From contig CAYWJS010000003.1 in NCBI GenBank assembly GCA_964458855.1, forward strand, positions 1,957 to 65,956: DNA of 64,000 nt, written 5' to 3'. Below the pieces are notes generated by a model, which was not told the DNA's origin, ran no database searches, and saw only the letters and a program-made list of their open reading frames with translations. The stretch's first letter is position 1, and every line of letters starts with the position of its first letter. The stretch comes from an uncultured Erysipelotrichia bacterium (GTDB lineage: Bacteria > Bacillota_I > Bacilli_A > CAYWJS01). Of the stretch, positions 310 through 17,187 are shown one piece after another. The translations under genes were made by a program, and so were the position numbers.

Positions 310-2919
310 ATGGATTCAAATATTCAATTAAAAAATCAATTTGCCTGGACTTCTTTTTATATGGAGTTTGCTGATAAACTGTTGCCATATAAAAATAATC
401 GTTCGCACCTTCTTGAGTTGTTAAAAGACGTTTATAACGATTTAGGATTGCGCTATCCGTTTATAGAAAAGGACGGTATGCTGATTGACGATATTTGCCC
501 GTTTACCGTATTTGGCTGTTTTAATAAAGGGATTTCCAATGAAAATCGTATTGCTTTGATGAAAGGCATTGGCAGTAAACTCGGTGTTAAGACTTCAGTG
601 CCTACAGAATTTGACGGCATTCCGGTACTTAACAACATGAAGGCTTGGTTTTTCGCCGGTAAAAGTGAGCGAAAAGAAGATGACATTCCCAACCTATGGG
701 ACACATTTGAAGCCGGATTAAACTATGCAGACAATCCGTCAGAAGTCTCCAAGTCAGCATTTATAGCCTGTTATGATAAAGTAAGAAAGCAATTTGGAAT
801 TAAGTGGAATTTAACTATGGGACTGTATTGGATACGCCCCTTTTCCTACTTAAACCTTGATGATCGTAACAGAAGTTATCTGACACAAGATAGCTCTCCT
901 TATTATGCAAGTATTACTAAAATTTCTAACTTAAAGCAGCCTCCAAGTGCAAAAACCTATTTAGATCTCATTACTGTATGTAAAGAAATCTTTGCAAAGA
1001 GCGACAGTCCTTATCACAGTTTTCCCGAACTGTCCCACATAGCATGGGCTACAACAACTTCGGGAGCACGGAATAACAATATCACTTCAACCGCTAATAA
1101 AAAAATAGGCTGGATTTTTCAAGGTAATCCTAAATACTATGATGTTATGGGTGCTATTAAGGATCTTGATGTTGTAACATGGAGCGTAAAGCAATACCAA
1201 AACCAGATCAAAAAAGGCGATCGCGCTTATATATGGGTTTCAGGCCCTGAGGGTGGCATTGTTGCTTCAGGAGTTATTCTCTGTGACCCAGAAATCAGGG
1301 AAAATAATGAGCCTGACCCCTATGATCTTTCTGGCGATATAAGTACAGGAGAACGTCTTGTCGTAGATATTGAACTTACCCAAAAAATAACGGATGCTGT
1401 TATTAAGAGAGAAGATTTCTTAGCGGATGAACGCCTAAAAAACGCAAATATTATTTCTTTCCCAAATGTAACAAATTCTAGATTGACTTCCGAGCAGGCC
1501 GATGTTATAGACAGCATTATCAACGGCACCTATATACGTATAGAGCCAAAGAATTCAGATGAAACATCAGCCCCTTTAAGACGATACTGGATTTATGCCC
1601 CCGGCAGCAATTCTTCCAAATGGGAAGAGTTTTACTCTCAAGGAATTATGGGTATTGGATGGGATGAATTAGGCGACCTTAAACAATACCCCAGCAAAGA
1701 TGCCATGAAAGCCAAAATGAAGGAACTGTATGGCGCTGAATACTCATATATTAACTCAGTCCTTGCCACATGGCAGTTTGCTAATGAGATTAAAGTCGGC
1801 GATATTGTTTATGCAAAAAAAGGCATGCATAAAGTAATCGGGCGTGGCATAGTTGAATCCGACTATATTTTTAACGCAGATCGCGATGAGTATAAACATA
1901 TTCGTAAAATCAAATGGACACATAACGGGGAGTGGGAACACCCGGGACAAGCTGTCATGAAAACCCTTACCGACATAACTCCTTATACTGATTATGTACA
2001 AAAACTAGAAGCGCTCTTTATTGATGATGACTCTGTAGATATTGAAGAAAAAGAAATTGTGTATGAGTCCTACACCGAAGATAACTTCCTCAATGAAGTT
2101 TTCATGGATGCCGAACGTTACAATACTTTGGTTAATCTCTTAAAAACCAAGAAAAACATCATCCTGCAAGGAGCGCCCGGCGTTGGTAAAACTTTTGCTG
2201 CCAAAAGACTTGCTTTTTCCATAATGGGGCAAAAAGATACAAGCCGCGTTATGATGGTTCAATTCCATCAAAGTTACAGCTATGAAGACTTTATTATGGG
2301 ATTCCGGCCAACCAAAGACGGATTTGAGCTTACCCCCGGGCCTTTTTACCAGTTCTGCAAAACAGCACAGGATGACGATGAACGGGATTATTTCTTTATC
2401 ATTGACGAAATTAACCGCGGCAATGTAAGCAAAATTTTTGGTGAGTTGATGATGCTTATAGAAAAGGAAAAACGCGGTGAAAAACTACGCCTTCTTTACT
2501 CCAACGAGTTATTTTCTGTTCCCAAAAATCTCTACATTATCGGTATGATGAATACTGCCGACCGCAGCCTTGCCATAATCGATTATGCTTTGAGAAGAAG
2601 ATTCGCTTTCTTTGAACTCGAGCCTGCTTTTGACTCTGAAGGATTTAAAAAAATTATACAGCAAGCAAACAACCCCAAGTTTAATGCCCTGGTTGAGCAA
2701 ATTAAAGCTTTGAATGACTTTATCTGCAAGGATGAATCCCTTGGCAGTGGGTTCAGAATTGGACACAGTTATCTGTGCACAAATAGTGAGGTAACCGACG
2801 AATGGCTGGAATCCGTTATTAAGTATGAATTGTTGCCTCTTTTAAACGAATATTGGTTTGACGAACCATCCAAAATAGAACAGTGGACAAAAAGGCTGAG
2901 TGAGGTTTTATATGATTAG
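310..2919 (+). CDS. mcrB: McrB-like AAA+ GTPase subunit of a type IV (modification-dependent) restriction system, with a long N-terminal extension carrying two PUA-like (EVE/YTH-type) reader domains
   Basis: ORF track 869 aa; Walker A GAPGVGKT (nt ~2170-2193), McrB signature MMNTADRS, RBS GAGGTG before ATG; N-terminal segments with W/GD/G-rich beta-barrel-like pattern. Confidence 0.85.
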   Translation: MDSNIQLKNQFAWTSFYMEFADKLLPYKNNRSHLLELLKDVYNDLGLRYPFIEKDGMLIDDICPFTVFGCFNKGISNENRIALMKGIGSKLGVKTSVPTEFDGIPVLNNMKAWFFAGKSERKEDDIPNLWDTFEAGLNYADNPSEVSKSAFIACYDKVRKQFGIKWNLTMGLYWIRPFSYLNLDDRNRSYLTQDSSPYYASITKISNLKQPPSAKTYLDLITVCKEIFAKSDSPYHSFPELSHIAWATTTSGARNNNITSTANKKIGWIFQGNPKYYDVMGAIKDLDVVTWSVKQYQNQIKKGDRAYIWVSGPEGGIVASGVILCDPEIRENNEPDPYDLSGDISTGERLVVDIELTQKITDAVIKREDFLADERLKNANIISFPNVTNSRLTSEQADVIDSIINGTYIRIEPKNSDETSAPLRRYWIYAPGSNSSKWEEFYSQGIMGIGWDELGDLKQYPSKDAMKAKMKELYGAEYSYINSVLATWQFANEIKVGDIVYAKKGMHKVIGRGIVESDYIFNADRDEYKHIRKIKWTHNGEWEHPGQAVMKTLTDITPYTDYVQKLEALFIDDDSVDIEEKEIVYESYTEDNFLNEVFMDAERYNTLVNLLKTKKNIILQGAPGVGKTFAAKRLAFSIMGQKDTSRVMMVQFHQSYSYEDFIMGFRPTKDGFELTPGPFYQFCKTAQDDDERDYFFIIDEINRGNVSKIFGELMMLIEKEKRGEKLRLLYSNELFSVPKNLYIIGMMNTADRSLAIIDYALRRRFAFFELEPAFDSEGFKKIIQQANNPKFNALVEQIKALNDFICKDESLGSGFRIGHSYLCTNSEVTDEWLESVIKYELLPLLNEYWFDEPSKIEQWTKRLSEVLYD

Positions 2920-3946
2920 AATTCAAAATATATACTATATGCTTGCTTATGCTTTTCATGTCTTAAATGAAGAAGGCTATAAACAAGTAGCAACTGAAGA
3001 TTTCGAATATACTTCTGATTTATTTGCAGCAATTCTTTCCAAAGGTATTGCCAGCCAAATCAAAAGGGGATTAAGTAGGGAGTATATCAGCAAAACAGAA
3101 GCCGTTATTTCACCTACAGGTAAAATCAATGTCTCAGCCTCCATTGTACAGAATTCCATGCTTAAAAAGAAACTGGTCTGTGATTATGATGAGTTTACAG
3201 AAAACAGTTACTTGAATAAAATACTCAAAACCACTGCAATGCTTTTGATACGCTGTCCGGAAGTATCAACGCAGCATAAAAAAGCCTTAAGGAAAACAAT
3301 GCTTTATTTCAGTAATGTTGATGAAATAAATCCGCGCAGAATTCAATGGTCGAGTATCAGATACCATAGGAATAATGCCACCTATAAAATGCTGCTGAAT
3401 ATCTGCTATCTAGTTATCGAAGGTATGCTAATGACCGAGCAGGACGGTTCCCGAAAGTTGGCCCGCTATGTAGACGACCAGCGTATGCCCAGGCTTTATG
3501 AAAAATTTGTGTTGGAATATTATCGTAGGCATTATCCCCAGTTTAATGCTTCATCCACCATTATTGACTGGGATGTCGACGGTGGAGAAATAGAATATTT
3601 ACCTACTATGAAATCAGATATAACTCTTCGATATCGGGGCAAAACACTCATTATAGACACAAAATACTATAAGAAGACCATGCAGATAAACAGCTTGTTC
3701 AACAGCCGAACAATCCATTCTCACAATTTGTATCAGATATTTACTTATGTAAAAAACATGGATTTAGCTCGTTCGGGAAATATAAGCGGCCTTTTGCTTT
3801 ATGCCAAAACTGATGAAGATATTGTACCGGACAACGATTATATTATCGGCGGTAATCGTATTAGCGTTAAAACTTTGGACTTGAATACTGACTTTTCCAA
3901 CATATCAAAACAGTTGAACGCAATAGTAGAAAAGATGTTATTATAA
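2912..3946 (+). CDS. mcrC: McrC-like nuclease subunit (PD-(D/E)xK) of the McrBC system
   Basis: ORF track 2900..3946 starts at GTG; more likely ATG at 2912 with RBS GAGGT, overlapping mcrB stop (ATGATTAG); N-terminal IRIQNIYYMLAYAF typical of McrC; catalytic-like motif IIDTKYYKK. Confidence 0.8.
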   Translation: MIRIQNIYYMLAYAFHVLNEEGYKQVATEDFEYTSDLFAAILSKGIASQIKRGLSREYISKTEAVISPTGKINVSASIVQNSMLKKKLVCDYDEFTENSYLNKILKTTAMLLIRCPEVSTQHKKALRKTMLYFSNVDEINPRRIQWSSIRYHRNNATYKMLLNICYLVIEGMLMTEQDGSRKLARYVDDQRMPRLYEKFVLEYYRRHYPQFNASSTIIDWDVDGGEIEYLPTMKSDITLRYRGKTLIIDTKYYKKTMQINSLFNSRTIHSHNLYQIFTYVKNMDLARSGNISGLLLYAKTDEDIVPDNDYIIGGNRISVKTLDLNTDFSNISKQLNAIVEKMLL

Positions 3947-4279: not shown

Positions 4280-4564
4280 TCATTCGCTACCATCTATTGA
4301 ATCTTTAATAATATCTATATAATTCTGTTCTTTTATATCTGTATATAATACTTCTTTCTTTTCTCCAATATCAGTTGGTAAAAGATTAGTATTATTTGTT
4401 AAATATATTTGGGCTTGCTTTACTAATAGCTCTTCATTCCTACGAAAAGCATTAAAACGATTCTTTTGAATAAGTGATGAAAAACTTGGGATTGCTATTG
4501 CAAGAATCAAACCCAGAATAACAATAACTGCAAGAAGTTCAATTAAAGTAAAACCTCGACTCAT
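4280..4564 (-). CDS. Prepilin-type N-terminal cleavage/methylation domain protein (type IV pilin or ComGC-like pseudopilin)
   Basis: 94 aa; MSRG|FTLIELLAVIVILGLILAIAIPS class III signal/hydrophobic helix; strong RBS AGGAGG; ends with TGA stop. Confidence 0.7.
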   Translation of the reverse strand: MSRGFTLIELLAVIVILGLILAIAIPSFSSLIQKNRFNAFRRNEELLVKQAQIYLTNNTNLLPTDIGEKKEVLYTDIKEQNYIDIIKDSIDGSE

Positions 4565-8720: not shown

Positions 8721-9755
8721 CTATTTCCTCGTTTCATTAATTCTTAATTGACCACAAGCAGCATTAATATCAGATCCCTTTTCTCTTCTAATTGTAGCAC
8801 TAATTCCGTGTTTTTTCAAAACATCATAAAATTCTAAATACCTTGTTTTTAATGCTCGCTTAAAACCGGTTTCAGCTACATCATTATATGGTATTAAATT
8901 AACATAAGCATTAAGCCCCGAAATTAGCTTTGCAAGTTCTTTGGCATGTTCTAAAGAATCATTAATATCATGAAGTAGAATATATTCAAATGTTACACGC
9001 CGATTAGTTTTTTTAATATAATAACGAACTGCCTTTATAATTTCTTCTATTGGATACACTTTATTTATTCTCATTAATTTATTTCGAATTTCATTATTTG
9101 GAGCATGAAGACTAATGGCAAGATTTACTTGCAATGGAAAATCACTAAACTCATAAATCTTTGGTACAATGCCACATGTTGAAACTGTTATATGACGTGC
9201 TCCAATACCTAAACCTAAAGGATTATTTATAATTTTTATAAATTTCAAAACATTTTCATAATTATCAAAAGGCTCACCAATTCCCATAATAACAACATGT
9301 GAAAGTCGTTCATTATTTTTTACTAACTCTTTTTGAACTTTTATTACTTGTTCTACAATTTCCCCTGCTTTTAAATTTCTTACCTTTCCTTTTAATCCAC
9401 TCGCACAAAACGCGCATCCCATATTACAACCAACTTGGGTTGAAACACAAACGCTTAAACCATAATTATGACGCATTAACACAGTTTCTATTAATGAATC
9501 ATCTGACAGTCTAAATAAGTATTTTTCTGTTTTATCTTCCGACACCATTTTTTTTACAAGTTCTAGTGATGAAATATAAAAATTTTCTTTTAATAAATCT
9601 ATTGTTTCTTTTTTTACATTTTTAATTTCCTCGTAAGAACCAATAAAATTTTGATAAAGCCAATTATATAGTTGTTTAGCAACAAATTTTTTGCTTTCTC
9701 TATTTAATAAAAACTCTTCTAAGTCTTCTAAAGTTAAGCTATAAATACTCTCCAT
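8721..9755 (-). CDS. rlmN: 23S rRNA/tRNA adenine-C2 methyltransferase RlmN (radical SAM)
   Basis: 344 aa; CNMGCAFCASG radical-SAM cluster motif; position upstream of prpC-prkC. Confidence 0.9.
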   Translation of the reverse strand: MESIYSLTLEDLEEFLLNRESKKFVAKQLYNWLYQNFIGSYEEIKNVKKETIDLLKENFYISSLELVKKMVSEDKTEKYLFRLSDDSLIETVLMRHNYGLSVCVSTQVGCNMGCAFCASGLKGKVRNLKAGEIVEQVIKVQKELVKNNERLSHVVIMGIGEPFDNYENVLKFIKIINNPLGLGIGARHITVSTCGIVPKIYEFSDFPLQVNLAISLHAPNNEIRNKLMRINKVYPIEEIIKAVRYYIKKTNRRVTFEYILLHDINDSLEHAKELAKLISGLNAYVNLIPYNDVAETGFKRALKTRYLEFYDVLKKHGISATIRREKGSDINAACGQLRINETRK

Positions 9756-9835
9756 GAAAGCACCTCTTTTATAAGTAAAATTATATCACTAGTTATAATT
9801 TAAAGAAATGCTTTTAGAATATTTTTTAAAAATAA

Positions 9836-9856
9836 AAGGTGTCACTTTGACACCTT
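9836..9856 (-). terminator. Hairpin terminator overlapping the stop codon of the activase gene
   Basis: aaggtgtc/gacacctt stem flanked by A-run and T-run. Confidence 0.5.
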
Positions 9857-10804
9857 TACAAGCTTTGCCCCATTATCACACTTGTTTCCCCACGAATCAA
9901 TTAGTTCGTGATCTTTATAAACACATATTATCTCACAATTATTAGCACATACCTTGCACTCAACTCCCCGCGTTATAAAATCTATCTCAGCAAGTGAAAA
10001 ATTAAATGGTTTAGGACTCGTTGTATCTTTTGCCATAATAGCAACTCCTAAGGCCCCCATTAAATGTCCATTTTTATCAACATAGATTTTTTCACCAAGA
10101 ATTTTTTCAAAAGCTTGAACAACTCCAATATTTTTGCTTACACCACCTTGAAAAACAATTGGTGGTTTTATATTTTTGCCTTTACCAACATTATTTAAAT
10201 AATTTGCTACAACCGCCTCACAAAGTCCTGCAATAATATCTTCTTTTGAGTGTCCTATTTGGGCTTTGTGGACTAAATCACTTTCTGCAAAAACTGTACA
10301 ACGAGCAGCAATTTTGGTTGGTGTTTTTGATTTTTGAGCCCAAAGGCCAAATTCTTCAACTGGAATACCAAGCCTTCTTGCTTGCGAACTTAAAAAAGAA
10401 CCTGTTCCTGCGGCACACAATGTATTCATAGCATAATCAATAACTATTCCGTTTTCAATTAAAATAATTTTTGAATCTTGCCCACCAATTTCAAAAATTG
10501 TTTTTACATCAGGAAAAATACTTAAGGTTCCAATTGCATGTGCTGTAATTTCATTTTTTACAAGTCCTGCATCAAGAATTGTGCCAATTAGTTTTCGAGC
10601 AGAACCAGTTGTTCCAACATAACTTATCTTAATATTTTTATCACTTACTTGCTTATAAAGTAATTTTATTAAATTTTTGACTGCTTGAATTGGATTTCCT
10701 TCAGTCCAAATATATTCACTAGCAATTATGTTGTTATTTTTATCAACAATTACTCCTTTTGTTGAAATTGAACCAACATCAACTCCCAGTGCATATTCAG
10801 TCAT
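9842..10804 (-). CDS. BadF/BadG/BcrA/BcrD-type ATPase, CoA-substrate-specific enzyme activase (HgdC-like)
   Basis: 320 aa; N-terminal LGVDVGSISTKGVIV actin-fold ATPase motif, GGQDSK, C-terminal Cys cluster. Confidence 0.75.
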   Translation of the reverse strand: MTEYALGVDVGSISTKGVIVDKNNNIIASEYIWTEGNPIQAVKNLIKLLYKQVSDKNIKISYVGTTGSARKLIGTILDAGLVKNEITAHAIGTLSIFPDVKTIFEIGGQDSKIILIENGIVIDYAMNTLCAAGTGSFLSSQARRLGIPVEEFGLWAQKSKTPTKIAARCTVFAESDLVHKAQIGHSKEDIIAGLCEAVVANYLNNVGKGKNIKPPIVFQGGVSKNIGVVQAFEKILGEKIYVDKNGHLMGALGVAIMAKDTTSPKPFNFSLAEIDFITRGVECKVCANNCEIICVYKDHELIDSWGNKCDNGAKLVKVSK

Positions 10805-11873
10805 ATCGCTTTTCCTTTCTCATAAGAAGCATATCATAAAAGGCTTCTAATCTTGTTTTTACACCTGTCTCTGAAGTATGAGCATCAAAACTAAAATATA
10901 AAATGGGAATCTTATAATCATTACTTAAATTTTGCAGTATCGGTATTGCATTAACCTCAGGAGTGCATCCAAATGGTTTGATATGAATTATGCCATCAAA
11001 CTCAAGTTCAGCTAAGATTTTAGTACGAGCAACACTATCAGTTCCATCTGCACCAATTGGATATTTTAAATATTTTCCCGCATTTTTTAATAACTTTTTT
11101 TCTAACTTCGCTTTTTCAAATAAAAGATATGTTATATTCATAAATCTTGTTACCTGAATTCCTTTTTGAGCAAGTTCTTTTTCAATAAAATAATTACTAA
11201 AAGGCTCCATTAATACATATAACTCTCCTAATACTCCAATCCTAATTGGATTTTTAGGTTTATCTGTTTCTATGCTTTTAAAAAGTTTTAAATAGTTTCT
11301 TTTTAACTTTAAAAGATCTATAAATCCTTTAGTGTGTTTTAAATCTTCTAAAAATTTTTTACGCAGTCTTTCAAAACTTCCCTTTTCTTTTTCAAATCAC
11401 ACATTTTCTCGAATATAAAACTCTATTTCATCAAGAATGTAAGCCATTTTAATAGCAAGTAAAACATAATATAAAAACTTAAAAAATGAAAGTTTATTGT
11501 TCAATTTTCTAAAACTTTTAAAAAGAGTAATTGGTGTTACTTTTCCACTGCTACAAATATCAATAAATTCAAAATTATAACCTAAATCTTTTAAAATTTG
11601 CTCTTGAATTTCTCCATAATAACCAAACCTGCAACCACCACCTGCTTGTAAAATAATATCAGCCCCTAACTCCAGTGCTTCTATATAATTTCCTAAGTTA
11701 TATTTAAAAGGAATACAAACAAATTCTGGACTATATTTTGCTCCAAGTTCCAAAGTTTTTTTTGTAATTGGTGGCGGTACTAATACTTCAAAATCAAGGG
11801 TTTTGCGTGCTAAATACTCAAACACAACATGATAACTTCCCATATGCGGAAAAGTAACTTTTTTCTTTTTCAT
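10797..11873 (-). pseudogene. 2-hydroxyacyl-CoA dehydratase-like / DUF2229-type gene interrupted by a single in-frame TGA (minus-strand codon at 11397-11399); ORF-track fragments 11397..11873 and 10797..11210 are one frame
   Basis: Hand translation shows 62 sense codons with no candidate start between the TGA and the downstream Met, including a conserved-looking IRIGVLGELYVL strand. Confidence 0.4.
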
Positions 11874-12799
11874 ACTTTCTCCTCCAAAGTTTTTTTGTTT
11901 TTAATAATATCAATAAAACTTTCAAGACGAGTATGAAGTCCCGCTTCTCCTTGCAACTCATCTAAAACAATTACTGTAAGAGGTATATTTTTGATTTTCC
12001 GAAGACAAATTTCATTAACTAAAGAATCTGGTCCACAAGGAAATGTTGAAACTAAAATAATTCCATCAATTTTATCTTGATATTTACAAATTGCACTAAT
12101 AAGTTCCTTGTTATAAGTCCAATATAATGATCTTGTTACATCTTTTATAAGACTTTCACATTCAATATCTCCAATAAGGTCAGCATAAATTAAAGTTACA
12201 CCAAGACTTTCTAAGTATTTAATAATTGGTTTTCCTAGTAACTCATCGTAAGTATTATAAGGATGACTTACAATCATTATTTTTAAATTATCTGTTTCTT
12301 CTATTAATTTTTCTTGTTCTAACATAAACTCTTCTTTCTTTTTCTTTTCATATTTTTTTGCCAAAAAGTATGCTTTTGTTGTTTTTAAAACTCCACATCT
12401 TAAAAAAAGGCCCATTTTTAAAAATGCCTTAAATTCATTTTCACCCTTTTCATAATCAATGTTATAATCAAGAATTTTTATATTAGGGAACGTATTTCTT
12501 ACAATATCATACATGGCATTAAATTTAACACAGACAACTTCTCTCTTTCCAAAGCTTACGATTCTTGGAACTAGTATGTAATCAACTTTTTCTTTAAGCC
12601 AAAAAACATGTCCCATATAAACTTTGGCAGAAAGACAACTTTCATCAATTGAAAAATTAATTCCGTCCTTTAAAATTTCTTTATTTGTTTTAGGACTCAA
12701 GATAACTTTGCAACCAAGTTCTTTAAAAAAACGTTCCCATAAATATTGATATTTATAAAATAAAAAAGCACGAGGAATTCCTATCTTTATTTTTTCCAT
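11870..12799 (-). CDS. DUF2229-like protein associated with CoA-enzyme activases (dehydratase-like component)
   Basis: 309 aa; N-terminal IGIPRAFLFYKY...FFKELG pattern typical of activase-associated domain; Cys-rich; operonic with activase. Confidence 0.6.
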   Translation of the reverse strand: MEKIKIGIPRAFLFYKYQYLWERFFKELGCKVILSPKTNKEILKDGINFSIDESCLSAKVYMGHVFWLKEKVDYILVPRIVSFGKREVVCVKFNAMYDIVRNTFPNIKILDYNIDYEKGENEFKAFLKMGLFLRCGVLKTTKAYFLAKKYEKKKKEEFMLEQEKLIEETDNLKIMIVSHPYNTYDELLGKPIIKYLESLGVTLIYADLIGDIECESLIKDVTRSLYWTYNKELISAICKYQDKIDGIILVSTFPCGPDSLVNEICLRKIKNIPLTVIVLDELQGEAGLHTRLESFIDIIKNKKTLEEKV

Positions 12800-12893: not shown

Positions 12894-13814
12894 TTAATTA
12901 ACATTTAATTTTTTTATTTCATTTTTAATAATCTTTATTGACTGCTTAAACTTTTTAAGTTCACTTTCCGAAAGTTTAATATCAATAATACTTTCTACAC
13001 CTTGAGAATTTATAACGGCTGGCATTCCAATAAATAAATCATACTTCTTGTTATAGGTAGATACTGTAAGAATTGAATTTTCATCATCTAAAATAGCATT
13101 AGTAATTCTTAAAAGTACCATCCCTATTGCATAATAAGTTGCACCCTTTTTCTTAATAATTTCATAAGCTGCATTTTTAACTTTATTAGATATCTCTTCC
13201 AGAGAAGAAATATCTAAAATTTCCGTCATTAGGCGAGTTCCCACATAAGCATTTGACCAAGAAACAAATTCACTATCACCATGCTCTCCCATTACATAAG
13301 CATGAACATTTTTAGGATTTATATTTAATTTATCTCCAATTAGGTAGCGAAGTCGAATAGTATCTAAAGCAGTTCCTGTACCAATTACTTGGGAAGGTTT
13401 AAGATTTGAATGCTTATATGTAAGATAGGTCATAATATCAACAGGATTTGTGGCAACTAAAAAAATACCGTTAAAACCTGATATCATAACTTTCTTAATA
13501 ATTTCCGCAAAAATTTTATCGTTTTTATATAAAAGATCAAGTCTTGTTTCTCCTTCTTTTTGTTTGGCACCCGCTGAAAGAACAATTATACTTGCATCTT
13601 TACAATCTTTATAATCTCCCACTTTTATTTTAATCTTACTTGGTGAGAACGCTAGGCAATGATTTAAGTCCATTACCTCACCTATTACTCGCTCTTTATC
13701 AATATCAATTAAAACAAGTTCTGTAACTTTTGTTCTTTGATTTAAAAGTGCATAAGCATAGCTCATCCCCACATTACCGCAACCAATAATTACAACTTTA
13801 TTTTGCTTAATCAT
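12894..13814 (-). CDS. ldh: L-lactate / L-2-hydroxyacid dehydrogenase (LDH/MDH family)
   Basis: 306 aa; GCGNVGMSYA Rossmann motif, GEHGDS catalytic loop. Confidence 0.85.
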   Translation of the reverse strand: MIKQNKVVIIGCGNVGMSYAYALLNQRTKVTELVLIDIDKERVIGEVMDLNHCLAFSPSKIKIKVGDYKDCKDASIIVLSAGAKQKEGETRLDLLYKNDKIFAEIIKKVMISGFNGIFLVATNPVDIMTYLTYKHSNLKPSQVIGTGTALDTIRLRYLIGDKLNINPKNVHAYVMGEHGDSEFVSWSNAYVGTRLMTEILDISSLEEISNKVKNAAYEIIKKKGATYYAIGMVLLRITNAILDDENSILTVSTYNKKYDLFIGMPAVINSQGVESIIDIKLSESELKKFKQSIKIIKNEIKKLNVN

Positions 13815-14309: not shown

Positions 14310-15335
14310 TTATTTTTCGAAATACTCAACACCTATTGCTTTTCTTACATTATTTAATGTTTCTTGTGCTACTTTTCTTGCTTTTATGCTTCCTTCTAAA
14401 AGTATTTTATATACTTCATCGATATTTTGTTCATATACTTTTCTTCGTTCACGAATTGGTTTTAATTCTTCTTGAAGTACTTCATTTAAGTATTTCTTAA
14501 CTGTAACATCACCTAATCCACCTTTTTTATAATGCGCTTTTAATTCTTCAAGTTTTTTTCTATCTTTACAAAAGGCATCAAGGTAAATAAATACAGGGTT
14601 ATTTTTTACATCACCAGGATCTTCAATTCGAATATGATTTGGATCAGTAAACATACTCATTACCTTTTTTTCAATTACTTCTGGTTCATCAGCAAGAAAG
14701 ATTGCATTTCCAAGTGACTTGCTCATTTTTGCTTTTCCATCAATTCCAGGAAGACGACGAGCTGTTTTGTTTTCTGAAAGAATTGCCTCAGGCATTATTA
14801 GCGTTTCCCCATAAATTGAATTAAAGGCATGCACAATTTCTCTTGTCTGTTCAATTAAAGCAAGTTGATCTTCCCCAACTGGAACATATTTTGCACCAAA
14901 TGCTGTTATATCAGCTGCTTGACTTACTGGATAACAAAGAAAGCCAATAGGAACACTTTTTTCAAAACCTCGTTCCTTTATTTCCGTTTTTATTGTTGGA
15001 TTTCTTTGAAGACGCGAAACAGTCACTAAATTCATATAATATGTTGTAAGTTCAGTAAGTTCTGGAATTTGTGATTGAATACAAATTGTTGTCTTTTTTG
15101 GATCGATTCCTACTGCTAAGTAATCTAAAGCAACTTCTAAAACATTTTCTTTAATCTTTTCAGGATTTTTTGCATTATCAGTTAATGCTTGCATATCTGC
15201 AATAAGTATAAATTGTTCAAATTTTCCTGATTCTTGAAGTTCTAAACGTTTTTTTAAAGAACCAACATAATGTCCAAGATGAAGACGTCCTGTTGGTCTA
15301 TCTCCAGTTAAAACTACTTCTTTTTTCTTACTCAT
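14310..15335 (-). CDS. trpS: Tryptophan--tRNA ligase
   Basis: 341 aa; class I HIGH-type motif GRLHLGHY and KMSKS. Confidence 0.9.
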   Translation of the reverse strand: MSKKKEVVLTGDRPTGRLHLGHYVGSLKKRLELQESGKFEQFILIADMQALTDNAKNPEKIKENVLEVALDYLAVGIDPKKTTICIQSQIPELTELTTYYMNLVTVSRLQRNPTIKTEIKERGFEKSVPIGFLCYPVSQAADITAFGAKYVPVGEDQLALIEQTREIVHAFNSIYGETLIMPEAILSENKTARRLPGIDGKAKMSKSLGNAIFLADEPEVIEKKVMSMFTDPNHIRIEDPGDVKNNPVFIYLDAFCKDRKKLEELKAHYKKGGLGDVTVKKYLNEVLQEELKPIRERRKVYEQNIDEVYKILLEGSIKARKVAQETLNNVRKAIGVEYFEK

Positions 15336-15381
15336 TTATTTCACCTCTTTTATTTCGGCCTCACTTATATTTTAACATACT

Positions 15382-17187
15382 TTACACTCTTTGTTTTAAT
15401 TCAAAATATAAAAGCGAAACTGTTGGTGGAAGGGCAAAAAGAATTGGTAAAATATAGCGGAAATAAGTGTTCACAGGACCAGCAACACAAGCAAGAATTA
15501 TAGAAAGTGCTGGAAGTATTACCGTAATATATTTACTATTTTTATTTACAATTAAAATCACTAAAATTAATAAATAAATCCAAACAATAACACCAATATT
15601 AACAATTAAACCAACAATTGGAACATATGGAAATGCTTCACCTATTCCTATTAAAATATTACGTCCAAATTCTAAGGAATCAATGTAGTGATAATCAAAT
15701 CCATCCTTTACCATATTAGGATTCATTCTATAATAAATATACCATCTACTAGTATTTGGATAAAAATACCCATAAACATTACTTATTGTCGCATCAAAAT
15801 AAGCACTTGGATGTCTAAAAAACATTTTAAACCAAACTTTAAAATATTGTTTTAGTTCTTCCCTTGTTGTATATTTATTATATTTATTTTTAACTGGATC
15901 AGATAAATCCGGTTGGTAGTTCTCTGCTAAGGTGTCATATTCTAAAATGTGATCAATTATTTTTCTTTCTTCTTCTGTTACATCATCACCATGATATTTT
16001 ACGTATCGTGCAGTTTGCTGAAACGGAATTGATAAAGCTTCTCTTATACTTGTATTTGGGATTTTAAAGTAAGGTAATAAAACATTGTTATAAGCAATAT
16101 AAAACAAAACATTTACAAAGAAAACTATTATTAATGGTTTTCTTGATTTTGATAAGATAAAAAACAATGCTGGAAAACTTAAAACAATTGTATAAATTCC
16201 ATTATTTCTAAACAAAGTTACAAGTAAAATGATTAATCCTAAAATAATATAATCTTTTATTGTTTGTTCGTTTTTTAATAAATTATAAAGTTTAATTACA
16301 TAAAGTACTATTAAAGAACTAAAAATTACATCTTTTACTGCTGTCATTGCATAAAAAGGAAAAACTGGAATTAAGGCATAGATTAAAAGTGCACCAATAA
16401 CAAAATTATCATGTACTTTTGCTTTTTTAAGATAAACAATAGTATAAGCAAAAACACTTATAACAATTGATAATTGAATAATTGTATAAAGAAATAGCCC
16501 AAAATTTTGATTACCTAATGTATACCCAAATTTAAATAATCCTCCAAGTAAAAATGTATGAATTAAGGGATTAAAATTAGTAAGTGTTACAGATTCATCT
16601 AACAAGATAACACTATCCAAGTAAAATGTATGAAGTCCTAACATTTCTCTTATTTGGTAACCACCATCATAATTTAAAATTACTGGATAAAAACAAATTA
16701 TATATGGTAAATAACAAATAAAAATGAAAAGGAAACTAAATAAAAAGGGGTGCTTATCTAAATATTTTGTTATTTTGGGAAAATAGTTCTTAAAATCTCT
16801 TTTTGTTACTAAATATCCATATAATAAATTTATTCCTAAATTAAAAAAAACAAAATAGCTAACTAGTCTTGCTAAAGCAATAATAAAAAATAATATATTT
16901 CCAAATACTAAGGAACTATCCCCAACCACATCATAACTATGGAATAAAACCATAAAAATACTAAAAATAAATGCTAACAGTGATAAAAGAAATTGAGAAT
17001 TTACTTTAAATAAATATTTTTTATAAAGAAAAAATACGGAAACAGCTATTAAACAAGCAGTTAATACTCCCGTGTTATTGCGAACAAATTCATAACTTGG
17101 GTAAGCAAGTTCAACTGTTAAGCTAAATGCTGTAAGAATGCTTAAAATAAGTGCAATAAAAATTCTTTTGTTTTTCATATTAACCAC
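15382..17187 (-). CDS. Large polytopic membrane protein, putative GT-C-type glycosyltransferase (YfhO/Gtr-like)
   Basis: 601 aa, >10 predicted TM helices; operonic with GtrA-like and GT2 genes. Confidence 0.5.
   Translation of the reverse strand: MVNMKNKRIFIALILSILTAFSLTVELAYPSYEFVRNNTGVLTACLIAVSVFFLYKKYLFKVNSQFLLSLLAFIFSIFMVLFHSYDVVGDSSLVFGNILFFIIALARLVSYFVFFNLGINLLYGYLVTKRDFKNYFPKITKYLDKHPFLFSFLFIFICYLPYIICFYPVILNYDGGYQIREMLGLHTFYLDSVILLDESVTLTNFNPLIHTFLLGGLFKFGYTLGNQNFGLFLYTIIQLSIVISVFAYTIVYLKKAKVHDNFVIGALLIYALIPVFPFYAMTAVKDVIFSSLIVLYVIKLYNLLKNEQTIKDYIILGLIILLVTLFRNNGIYTIVLSFPALFFILSKSRKPLIIVFFVNVLFYIAYNNVLLPYFKIPNTSIREALSIPFQQTARYVKYHGDDVTEEERKIIDHILEYDTLAENYQPDLSDPVKNKYNKYTTREELKQYFKVWFKMFFRHPSAYFDATISNVYGYFYPNTSRWYIYYRMNPNMVKDGFDYHYIDSLEFGRNILIGIGEAFPYVPIVGLIVNIGVIVWIYLLILVILIVNKNSKYITVILPALSIILACVAGPVNTYFRYILPILFALPPTVSLLYFELKQRV

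Follow-up and report, generated by a model that had tools for sequence, protein, structure and literature searches.

A probable nonsense allele in a three-gene cluster for a putative activase-dependent Fe-S enzyme in an uncultured anaerobic-digester bacterium

A gene of 358 codons is interrupted by an in-frame TGA

The window, by which we mean the whole 64-kb stretch of DNA that was analyzed, contains a gene that is interrupted by an in-frame TGA, and this is very probably a genuine nonsense allele in a gene cluster that is decaying. Our best explanation is that the cluster is being lost in an uncultured, low-GC bacterium from anaerobic digesters that is labelled Mycoplasmatota or “Tenericutes,” and the nonsense allele represents ordinary gene loss.

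The gene is located on the minus strand, where the plus-strand triplet “tca” at positions 11397–11399 reads TGA. Translation of positions 11873..10797 (minus strand) in a single frame gives 158 amino acids, a stop, another 199 amino acids and the final stop. The gene is composed of an ORF of 158 codons (11873..11400), the TGA (11399..11397) and 199 open codons (11396..10800), all on the minus strand, in agreement with the sequence-only reading, which had placed two ORFs of 158 and 137 amino acids in one frame with a TGA between them.

The 5′ part (11400..11873, minus strand) codes for the first alpha/beta domain and for half of the helical region in the middle, as judged from the ORF, the Pfam matches and the structural model of a homolog (P0003), and the fragment of 158 amino acids is the sole product expected under normal termination at positions 11397–11399. 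The TGA is followed by 62 open codons (11211..11396, minus strand; sequence and alignment) that contain no ATG, GTG or TTG, as had also been seen earlier, and in which the invariant residues F160, K205, P206, G213, G216, E217 and Y219 are still encoded. The first of these start codons past the TGA is the ATG at position 11210, which opens the ORF of 137 codons (10797..11210, minus strand; terminal TGA at 10797–10799). This ORF is the 3′ end of the gene and, according to sequence, Pfam and alignment, it contains the second alpha/beta domain with a match to HGD-D. An AGGAG-like motif is located 12–14 nt ahead of the ATG at 11210, a spacing that is longer than usual.

Homologs are continuous across the stop and have a glycine at its position

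A protein search with the joined sequence of 358 amino acids recovered more than 4000 homologs. The best 120 of these more than 4000 matches, to which the figures for length and coverage refer, are 344–383 amino acids long and cover 96–100% of the query at identities of at most 67% and with E-values down to 1e-164. Intact homologs of 357–364 amino acids span 99% of the joined gene at identities of up to 67% (E about 1e-164), which bears out the earlier proposal of one gene of about 358 codons.

We also inspected 80 related loci taken from the GTDB representative genomes. All 80 are contiguous across the position of the TGA; a TGA at the position of codon 159 is present in none, and none is split or truncated at this point. 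The sequence-only reading had considered that homologs might be naturally split here, with the downstream part having a start of its own, and no such case is found among the 80 loci. It had also suggested an alignment with intact homologs as a means to identify the residue at the TGA site. This residue is a glycine in all 21 aligned proteins, within the motif (E/K)N-I-G-F-E, and in 79 of the 80 loci, encoded by GGC (27 loci), GGT (27), GGA (21) or GGG (4), while the one remaining locus has a valine. A cysteine is found at the aligned position in 0 of the 80 loci. According to the sequence, the homolog alignment and the genomic loci, the TGA at codon 159 (11397..11399, minus strand) replaces a near-invariant glycine codon, and since GGA is used for this glycine in 21 loci, a single change from GGA to TGA (G to T) is sufficient to explain it. 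Two features that define a pseudogene were thus found: a premature stop at a position where full-length homologs have a sense codon, and no restart that rescues the downstream part, given the 62 codons without a start and the poorly spaced AGGAG-like motif.

The stop aside, the only departures of the window protein from columns that are invariant in all 21 other sequences are L to I and I to V, which is fewer than in several of the intact homologs, and every invariant residue 3′ of the stop in the 21-protein alignment is retained. With no decay of the gene apart from the stop, the data fit a nonsense lesion that is evolutionarily recent. The intact downstream frame would equally fit continued translation by read-through or recoding, which makes the same prediction, and recoding keeps a small share of the probability for that reason.

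The stop codon is reproduced in separate assemblies

The exact product of 158 amino acids, together with the TGA, was recovered on Logan contigs from two separate assemblies, of SRR8925797 and SRR8925798, both of them metagenomes of the digestate of full-scale biogas plants (PRJNA533495; PMC7842101). The two contigs, L084 and L085, are 99.98% identical to the window, from which L084 differs at positions 9697 and 16038 and L085 at position 10747. Because the window and these contigs differ by SNPs, the TGA is present on three haplotypes. Both runs belong to one project and the window contig may share data with them, so that the independence is one of runs and haplotypes, not of studies. At the level of assemblies, with two runs and three haplotypes, the TGA is a true feature of the population.

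These results bear on the suggestion that the true codon is GGA, that the gene is intact and that the TGA was introduced by an error in sequencing or assembly. The contig is derived from a metagenome, and a single-base difference would be enough to generate the stop, but the TGA was found in two separately assembled runs and on haplotypes that differ at positions 9697, 10747 and 16038. The change is also a substitution, not a homopolymer indel, and no GGA version of the gene of this species is present among the protein matches. We consider such an error to be exceedingly unlikely. The sequence-only reading had listed three possible causes of the stop, and sequencing error is the one that is disfavored by the reproduction of the TGA in separate assemblies (two runs of one project) and on several haplotypes.

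In the search for an intact allele of the species, no close full-length match was found among the protein matches, and two exact-pattern scans of the JGI metagenome contigs gave no match. A segment of 81 amino acids that spans the stop had zero protein matches, which is a weak negative result, with only one candidate that shared words with the query. The species is absent from the GTDB representative genomes, among which the best match, Clostridium polyendosporum, is 67% identical.

TGA is used as a stop codon elsewhere in the window

The 58 long ORFs in the window terminate in TAA (41), TAG (7) or TGA (10, including the TGA at 11397–11399). The nine other genes that end in TGA include both neighbors of the interrupted gene in the cluster, and four of the TGA codons are located in ATGA overlaps. 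If only TAA and TAG are taken as stops, the TGA at 11397 is the one TGA in the 64 kb that lies well within a long ORF, the others being located at the ends of ORFs. It had been noted before that TGA is a genuine stop elsewhere, as in the pilin gene, and we find that this pilin-like gene (4280..4564, minus strand), with its N_methyl motif, indeed terminates in TGA. The genome-wide use of code 4 (UGA as Trp) or code 25 (UGA as Gly) was rejected because nine other genes end in TGA and only one internal TGA is seen in about 58 genes. Selenocysteine was rejected on the grounds that the aligned residue is Gly and not Cys, that a SECIS-like structure is lacking and that no Rfam family matches.

More broadly, the UGA could be decoded as selenocysteine, as glycine by a suppressor tRNA with the anticodon UCA (similar to code 25) or by programmed read-through, any of which would give a full-length, active protein. 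The downstream frame is wholly intact and conserved, as such a mechanism predicts, and the aligned residue, glycine, is the amino acid given to UGA in genetic code 25. Yet sites of selenocysteine normally align with cysteine, whereas glycine is found in 79 of the 80 loci, and Rfam, searched at its gathering threshold and also with E≤10, gave no meaningful match to a SECIS element or any other family after the TGA. A segment of 76 nt around the UGA and 3′ of it, with a minimum free energy of -10.4 kcal/mol (z = -1.47 relative to shuffles) and a local hairpin of A-U pairs only, folds no better than shuffled sequences. The tRNA genes found in the window are those for tRNA-Glu, tRNA-Met and tRNA-Leu, and neither a tRNA-Sec nor a tRNA with anticodon UCA is present within it. 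TGA terminates nine genes of the window, and no gene other than the interrupted one has an internal TGA. In E. coli, a U that follows UGA provides a strong context for efficient termination, and the U after the stop in this gene would also favor termination. Finally, the region is simply deleted in sister strains. Taking both sides into account, we regard a decoded UGA as very unlikely, and recoding, another of the causes that had been listed, was not upheld: the stop replaces a near-invariant glycine, no SECIS element was found and the organism uses TGA as a stop.

There is a very slight chance that UGA is a stop everywhere except at codon 159, where it would be decoded as glycine or by near-cognate read-through, yielding low amounts of the full-length enzyme, with the allele being maintained. 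If such decoding at one site were true, it could mark the beginning of a reassignment similar to code 25 in a lineage of the Mycoplasmatota or Bacilli.

The interrupted gene is the middle gene of a three-gene cluster

All three genes of the cluster are encoded on the minus strand. The upstream gene (11870..12799) is intact and codes for a DUF2229 protein of 309 amino acids (Pfam, 159.9 bits), and its TGA overlaps the start of the next gene (ATGA); the same overlap of the first two genes is present in the homologous cluster at locus L008. The downstream gene (9842..10804), which is intact in the window, codes for an ATPase of 320 amino acids of the BcrAD_BadFG or acyl-CoA dehydratase activase type (Pfam, 167.3 bits), and this protein also matches the NCBIfam model TIGR00241, “acyl-CoA dehydratase activase,” with a score of 195.9 versus a cut-off of 125.4. 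The sequence has a terminator-like hairpin with a T-run (9835..9857, minus strand) at the end of the cluster. The gene order and the protein sizes (about 310, 357–363 and 315–320 amino acids) recur in the nine homologous loci inspected, which are from Clostridium and Bacilli MAGs, and at locus L024 the middle gene is duplicated in tandem and the third ORF is shorter.

The middle protein matches two Pfam domains, DUF2229 (PF09989) at residues 24–74 (29.5 vs. 29.4 bits) and HGD-D (PF06050) at residues 285–349 (65 residues; 30.6 vs. 28.4 bits), and both matches are marginal and partial. None of the NCBIfam models matches the protein. The structure considered here is the AlphaFold2 model of P0003, which is a homolog with 67% identity and not the window protein itself. 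The model (pLDDT 85.7) has two alpha/beta domains that are joined by long helices, and Gly161, which is the equivalent of the TGA site, is positioned in the turn after helix 132–159. A Foldseek search of the PDB matched the fold over its full length, with E-values of 2.9e-9 to 3.9e-7, TM scores of 0.53–0.59 and identities of 10–16%, to the double-cubane cluster protein (7yyl, 6eno), the beta subunit of 2-hydroxyisocaproyl-CoA dehydratase (3o3m_B) and the benzoyl-CoA reductase proteins BzdO/MbdO (8s02, 9g87). The corresponding profile-to-PDB match at the sequence level is weak (3o3m_B, E 8e-4) and covers the last 65 or so residues. Three cysteines, at positions 53, 81 and 303, are invariant in the alignment.

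Based on the Pfam matches, the neighboring genes and the similarity in fold, the middle protein is predicted to be a divergent core subunit of the superfamily of ATP-dependent, activase-driven Fe-S radical enzymes; as in other members of this superfamily, its gene is adjacent to a gene for an ATP-dependent activase of the cognate type. P0003 shares the two-domain alpha/beta fold with the core subunits of the BCR/HAD/DCCP group (benzoyl-CoA reductases, 2-hydroxyacyl-CoA dehydratases and double-cubane cluster proteins) over the full length, but the partner in the cluster is a DUF2229 protein and not a second HGD-D subunit, and the identity is only 10–16%. The term “dehydratase-like,” which had been applied to the gene, is appropriate in a loose sense, in that there is a marginal HGD-D match and the homolog has a fold of this group, but it does not hold as a strict label. 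We rejected a bona fide 2-hydroxyacyl-CoA dehydratase (HgdAB/HadBC) given that the HGD-D match is confined to residues 285–349, that the partner is of the DUF2229 type and that no NCBIfam model matches.

The combination of BcrAD_BadFG, DUF2229 and a short HGD-D/DUF2229 has been described for the glycerol ester reductase Ger of T. maritima and for the plasmalogen synthase PlsA/PlsR of C. perfringens (PMC13159169, PMC12838417). The cluster contains the same three Pfam domains, with the short DUF2229 (24–74) and HGD-D (285–349) matches located in the middle protein. Unlike PlsA and Ger, which have two fused N-terminal activase domains, the cluster consists of separate genes for the DUF2229, DUF2229/HGD-D and BcrAD_BadFG proteins, with a single activase gene at the 3′ end. 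By analogy with the domain set of PlsA/PlsR and Ger described in these papers, a lipid may be the substrate of the cluster, which we consider to be a lead.

The best homologs of the middle protein are from Clostridium species (66–67% identity), while the best non-self matches of the adjoining RlmN protein are from MAGs of the Bacilli/Erysipelotrichaceae (64% identity). These values suggest that the lineage has no close sequenced relatives, and as judged from the sequence matches the cluster might be of clostridial origin.

A deletion in sister strains removes parts of two genes of the cluster

We compared the window to loci L086–L103; most public contigs of the species do not contain the segment at 10006..11414. 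As estimated from the contig alignment, the segment missing from the common sister-strain allele is 1409 bp long, with ends that are defined to within 2 nt and a microhomology of 2 nt (“AT”). The deletion contigs are more than 99.8% identical to the window on both flanks, with a clean gap in the alignment. The interrupted gene loses its 3′ 205 codons to the deletion and the activase gene its codons 1–266, and codon 153 of the former is fused to codon 267 of the latter out of frame, such that the product ends in ...EIEFY followed by LIFHLLR and a stop. The resulting gene of 160 codons is directly followed by rlmN in the deletion contigs. Consistently, the other short proteins in the 90%-identity cluster of the 158-amino acid fragment end in ...EIEFYLIFHLLR, and not in ...EIEFYIRENV.

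The deletion allele was seen in at least 10 other samples and is much commoner than the TGA allele in public data. Its main product, P0122 (160 amino acids), is indexed in 47 collection blocks, and the ten loci displayed for it represent ten other samples (ENA, JGI and Logan). A one-residue variant of this protein, P0123, corresponds to HHX93491.1 at NCBI, where the label is Tenericutes/Mycoplasmatota bacterium. The undeleted form is the ancestral structure, since its gene order matches that of other Firmicutes. Judging from the sequences, the species has two different alleles that would disable the same gene, the TGA and the deletion. The breakpoint of the deletion is located 16 nt upstream of the TGA, a distance expected by chance in roughly 1–3% of cases, and their nearness may be an unexplained coincidence. 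Across all loci, about 25 SNPs were observed, mostly nonsynonymous in every gene, corresponding to a strain diversity of about 0.1%, which is too little to gauge selection.

Both alleles converge on residues 1–153, and it could be argued that the 158-amino acid fragment is functional, possibly together with a separately started fragment of 137 amino acids, and that the gene has been truncated or split without loss of its role. The first 153 codons are kept in both alleles, which differ only in their tails (IRENV vs. LIFHLLR), and each of the 16 contigs that were read has an intact DUF2229 gene upstream. Against this stands the fact that 0 of the 80 homologous loci are split or truncated here. 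Moreover, the truncation point is located within the helices of the middle region and not at a domain boundary, with the loss of C303 and the conserved second domain; a start codon is absent from the 62 codons after the TGA, and the 137-amino acid ORF has a poor Shine-Dalgarno spacing. In the deletion allele, the activase, which is needed by this class of enzymes, is destroyed as well, variants of the fragment are changed at conserved residues (P55T in P0123 and E to K in P0125), and the divergence among strains is too low for retention of the 5′ part to imply selection. A functional truncation or split is thus unlikely.

Two other contigs differ from the window in this region. Contig L104 (ERZ2647901 NODE_61234; 926 bp) contains the undeleted 3′ part of the gene and terminates 30 nt before the site of the TGA. 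Its first 55 nt match the LDH gene (window 13702..13648), from where the alignment jumps to position 11313. Because 55 nt equals a k-mer size commonly used by assemblers, this junction is probably a graph artefact; alternatively, it could reflect another deletion, of about 2.3 kb. The sample from which L104 originates contains the deleted and undeleted alleles together. The other is an ENA contig (window 11400–12799) with a fusion protein of 470 amino acids, P0131, which joins the DUF2229 gene to the truncated fragment. The changes at its N-terminus and at its junction could be explained by indels close to the A-rich boundary between the genes, and the fusion is either a further step of decay or a low-coverage error.

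Other features of the window and its surroundings

The GC content of the window is 26–30%, except in the first 4 kb. This part contains an McrBC-like restriction module (310–3946, plus strand), in which a protein of 869 amino acids with the domains EVE and AAA_5 precedes an McrC-family protein of 348 amino acids. As the GC content is raised in this part of the window and nowhere else in it (0.378 vs. about 0.28), the module is probably a horizontally acquired island.

The pilin-like protein encoded at 4280–4564 (minus strand) is 94 amino acids long and has the N-terminal methylation motif of type IV pilins and pseudopilins (ComGC-like), in a genome labelled Tenericutes/Mycoplasmatota. In a related Bacilli MAG (locus L008), a protein of 523 amino acids with the same N-terminal motif is encoded right after the homologous three-gene cluster.

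Contig L087 (SRR31933951) differs from the window in the region around 15336–17187, where its positions 1–1452 code for YfhO, a GT2 glycosyltransferase and GtrA, whereas the window has a DUF6020 protein. These differing genes are located upstream of a gene for a tRNA synthetase of the tRNA-synt_1b family (Trp/Tyr type), and mismatches are clustered at the junction (15311–15351). The region looks like a strain-variable locus for surface glycosylation.

Probable loss of function and its implications

Of the three causes put forward in the sequence-only reading, the one named first, a nonsense mutation, is best supported by the alignment at the glycine, the separate assemblies and the usage of TGA. 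The most economical path to the premature stop would be a GGA-to-TGA transversion at the conserved codon for Gly159. Ribosomes would then terminate at codon 159 and release a fragment of 158 amino acids that would lack the second alpha/beta domain, the invariant C303 and about half of the invariant residues of the family. The 3′ part would not be rescued, with 62 codons that lack a start and an ATG at 11210 whose Shine-Dalgarno motif is poorly spaced. Without the second domain and half of the invariant residues, the truncated enzyme is most likely inactive, as predicted from the sequence and the model of the homolog. The enzyme would be lost although the partner genes are still intact in the strain with the TGA, and the 1.4-kb deletion in the majority lineage would have occurred in parallel or subsequent to the nonsense mutation. 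We infer that selection on the cluster is relaxed or negative.

The pattern resembles that of the unitary pseudogenes that arise by a premature stop in bacteria with reduced genomes: one nonsense codon occupies a position where a sense codon is conserved, translation is not restarted further along, the species has a second disabling allele and the gene is otherwise intact, as for a recent lesion. The sole oddity in our case is the deletion breakpoint 16 nt from the stop.

For annotation, the ORFs of 158 and 137 amino acids should be merged into a single pseudogene instead of being listed as two hypothetical proteins, and the gene should neither be marked as a selenoprotein nor be taken as evidence for an alternative code. 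For the biology of the organism, the results point to a single digester species with two loss-of-function alleles of the same cluster for an activase-dependent Fe-S enzyme, which suggests that the cluster is dispensable or disfavored in that niche. If the cluster were to encode a lipid reductase similar to the plasmalogen synthase, the alleles would predict a difference in membrane lipids between strains.
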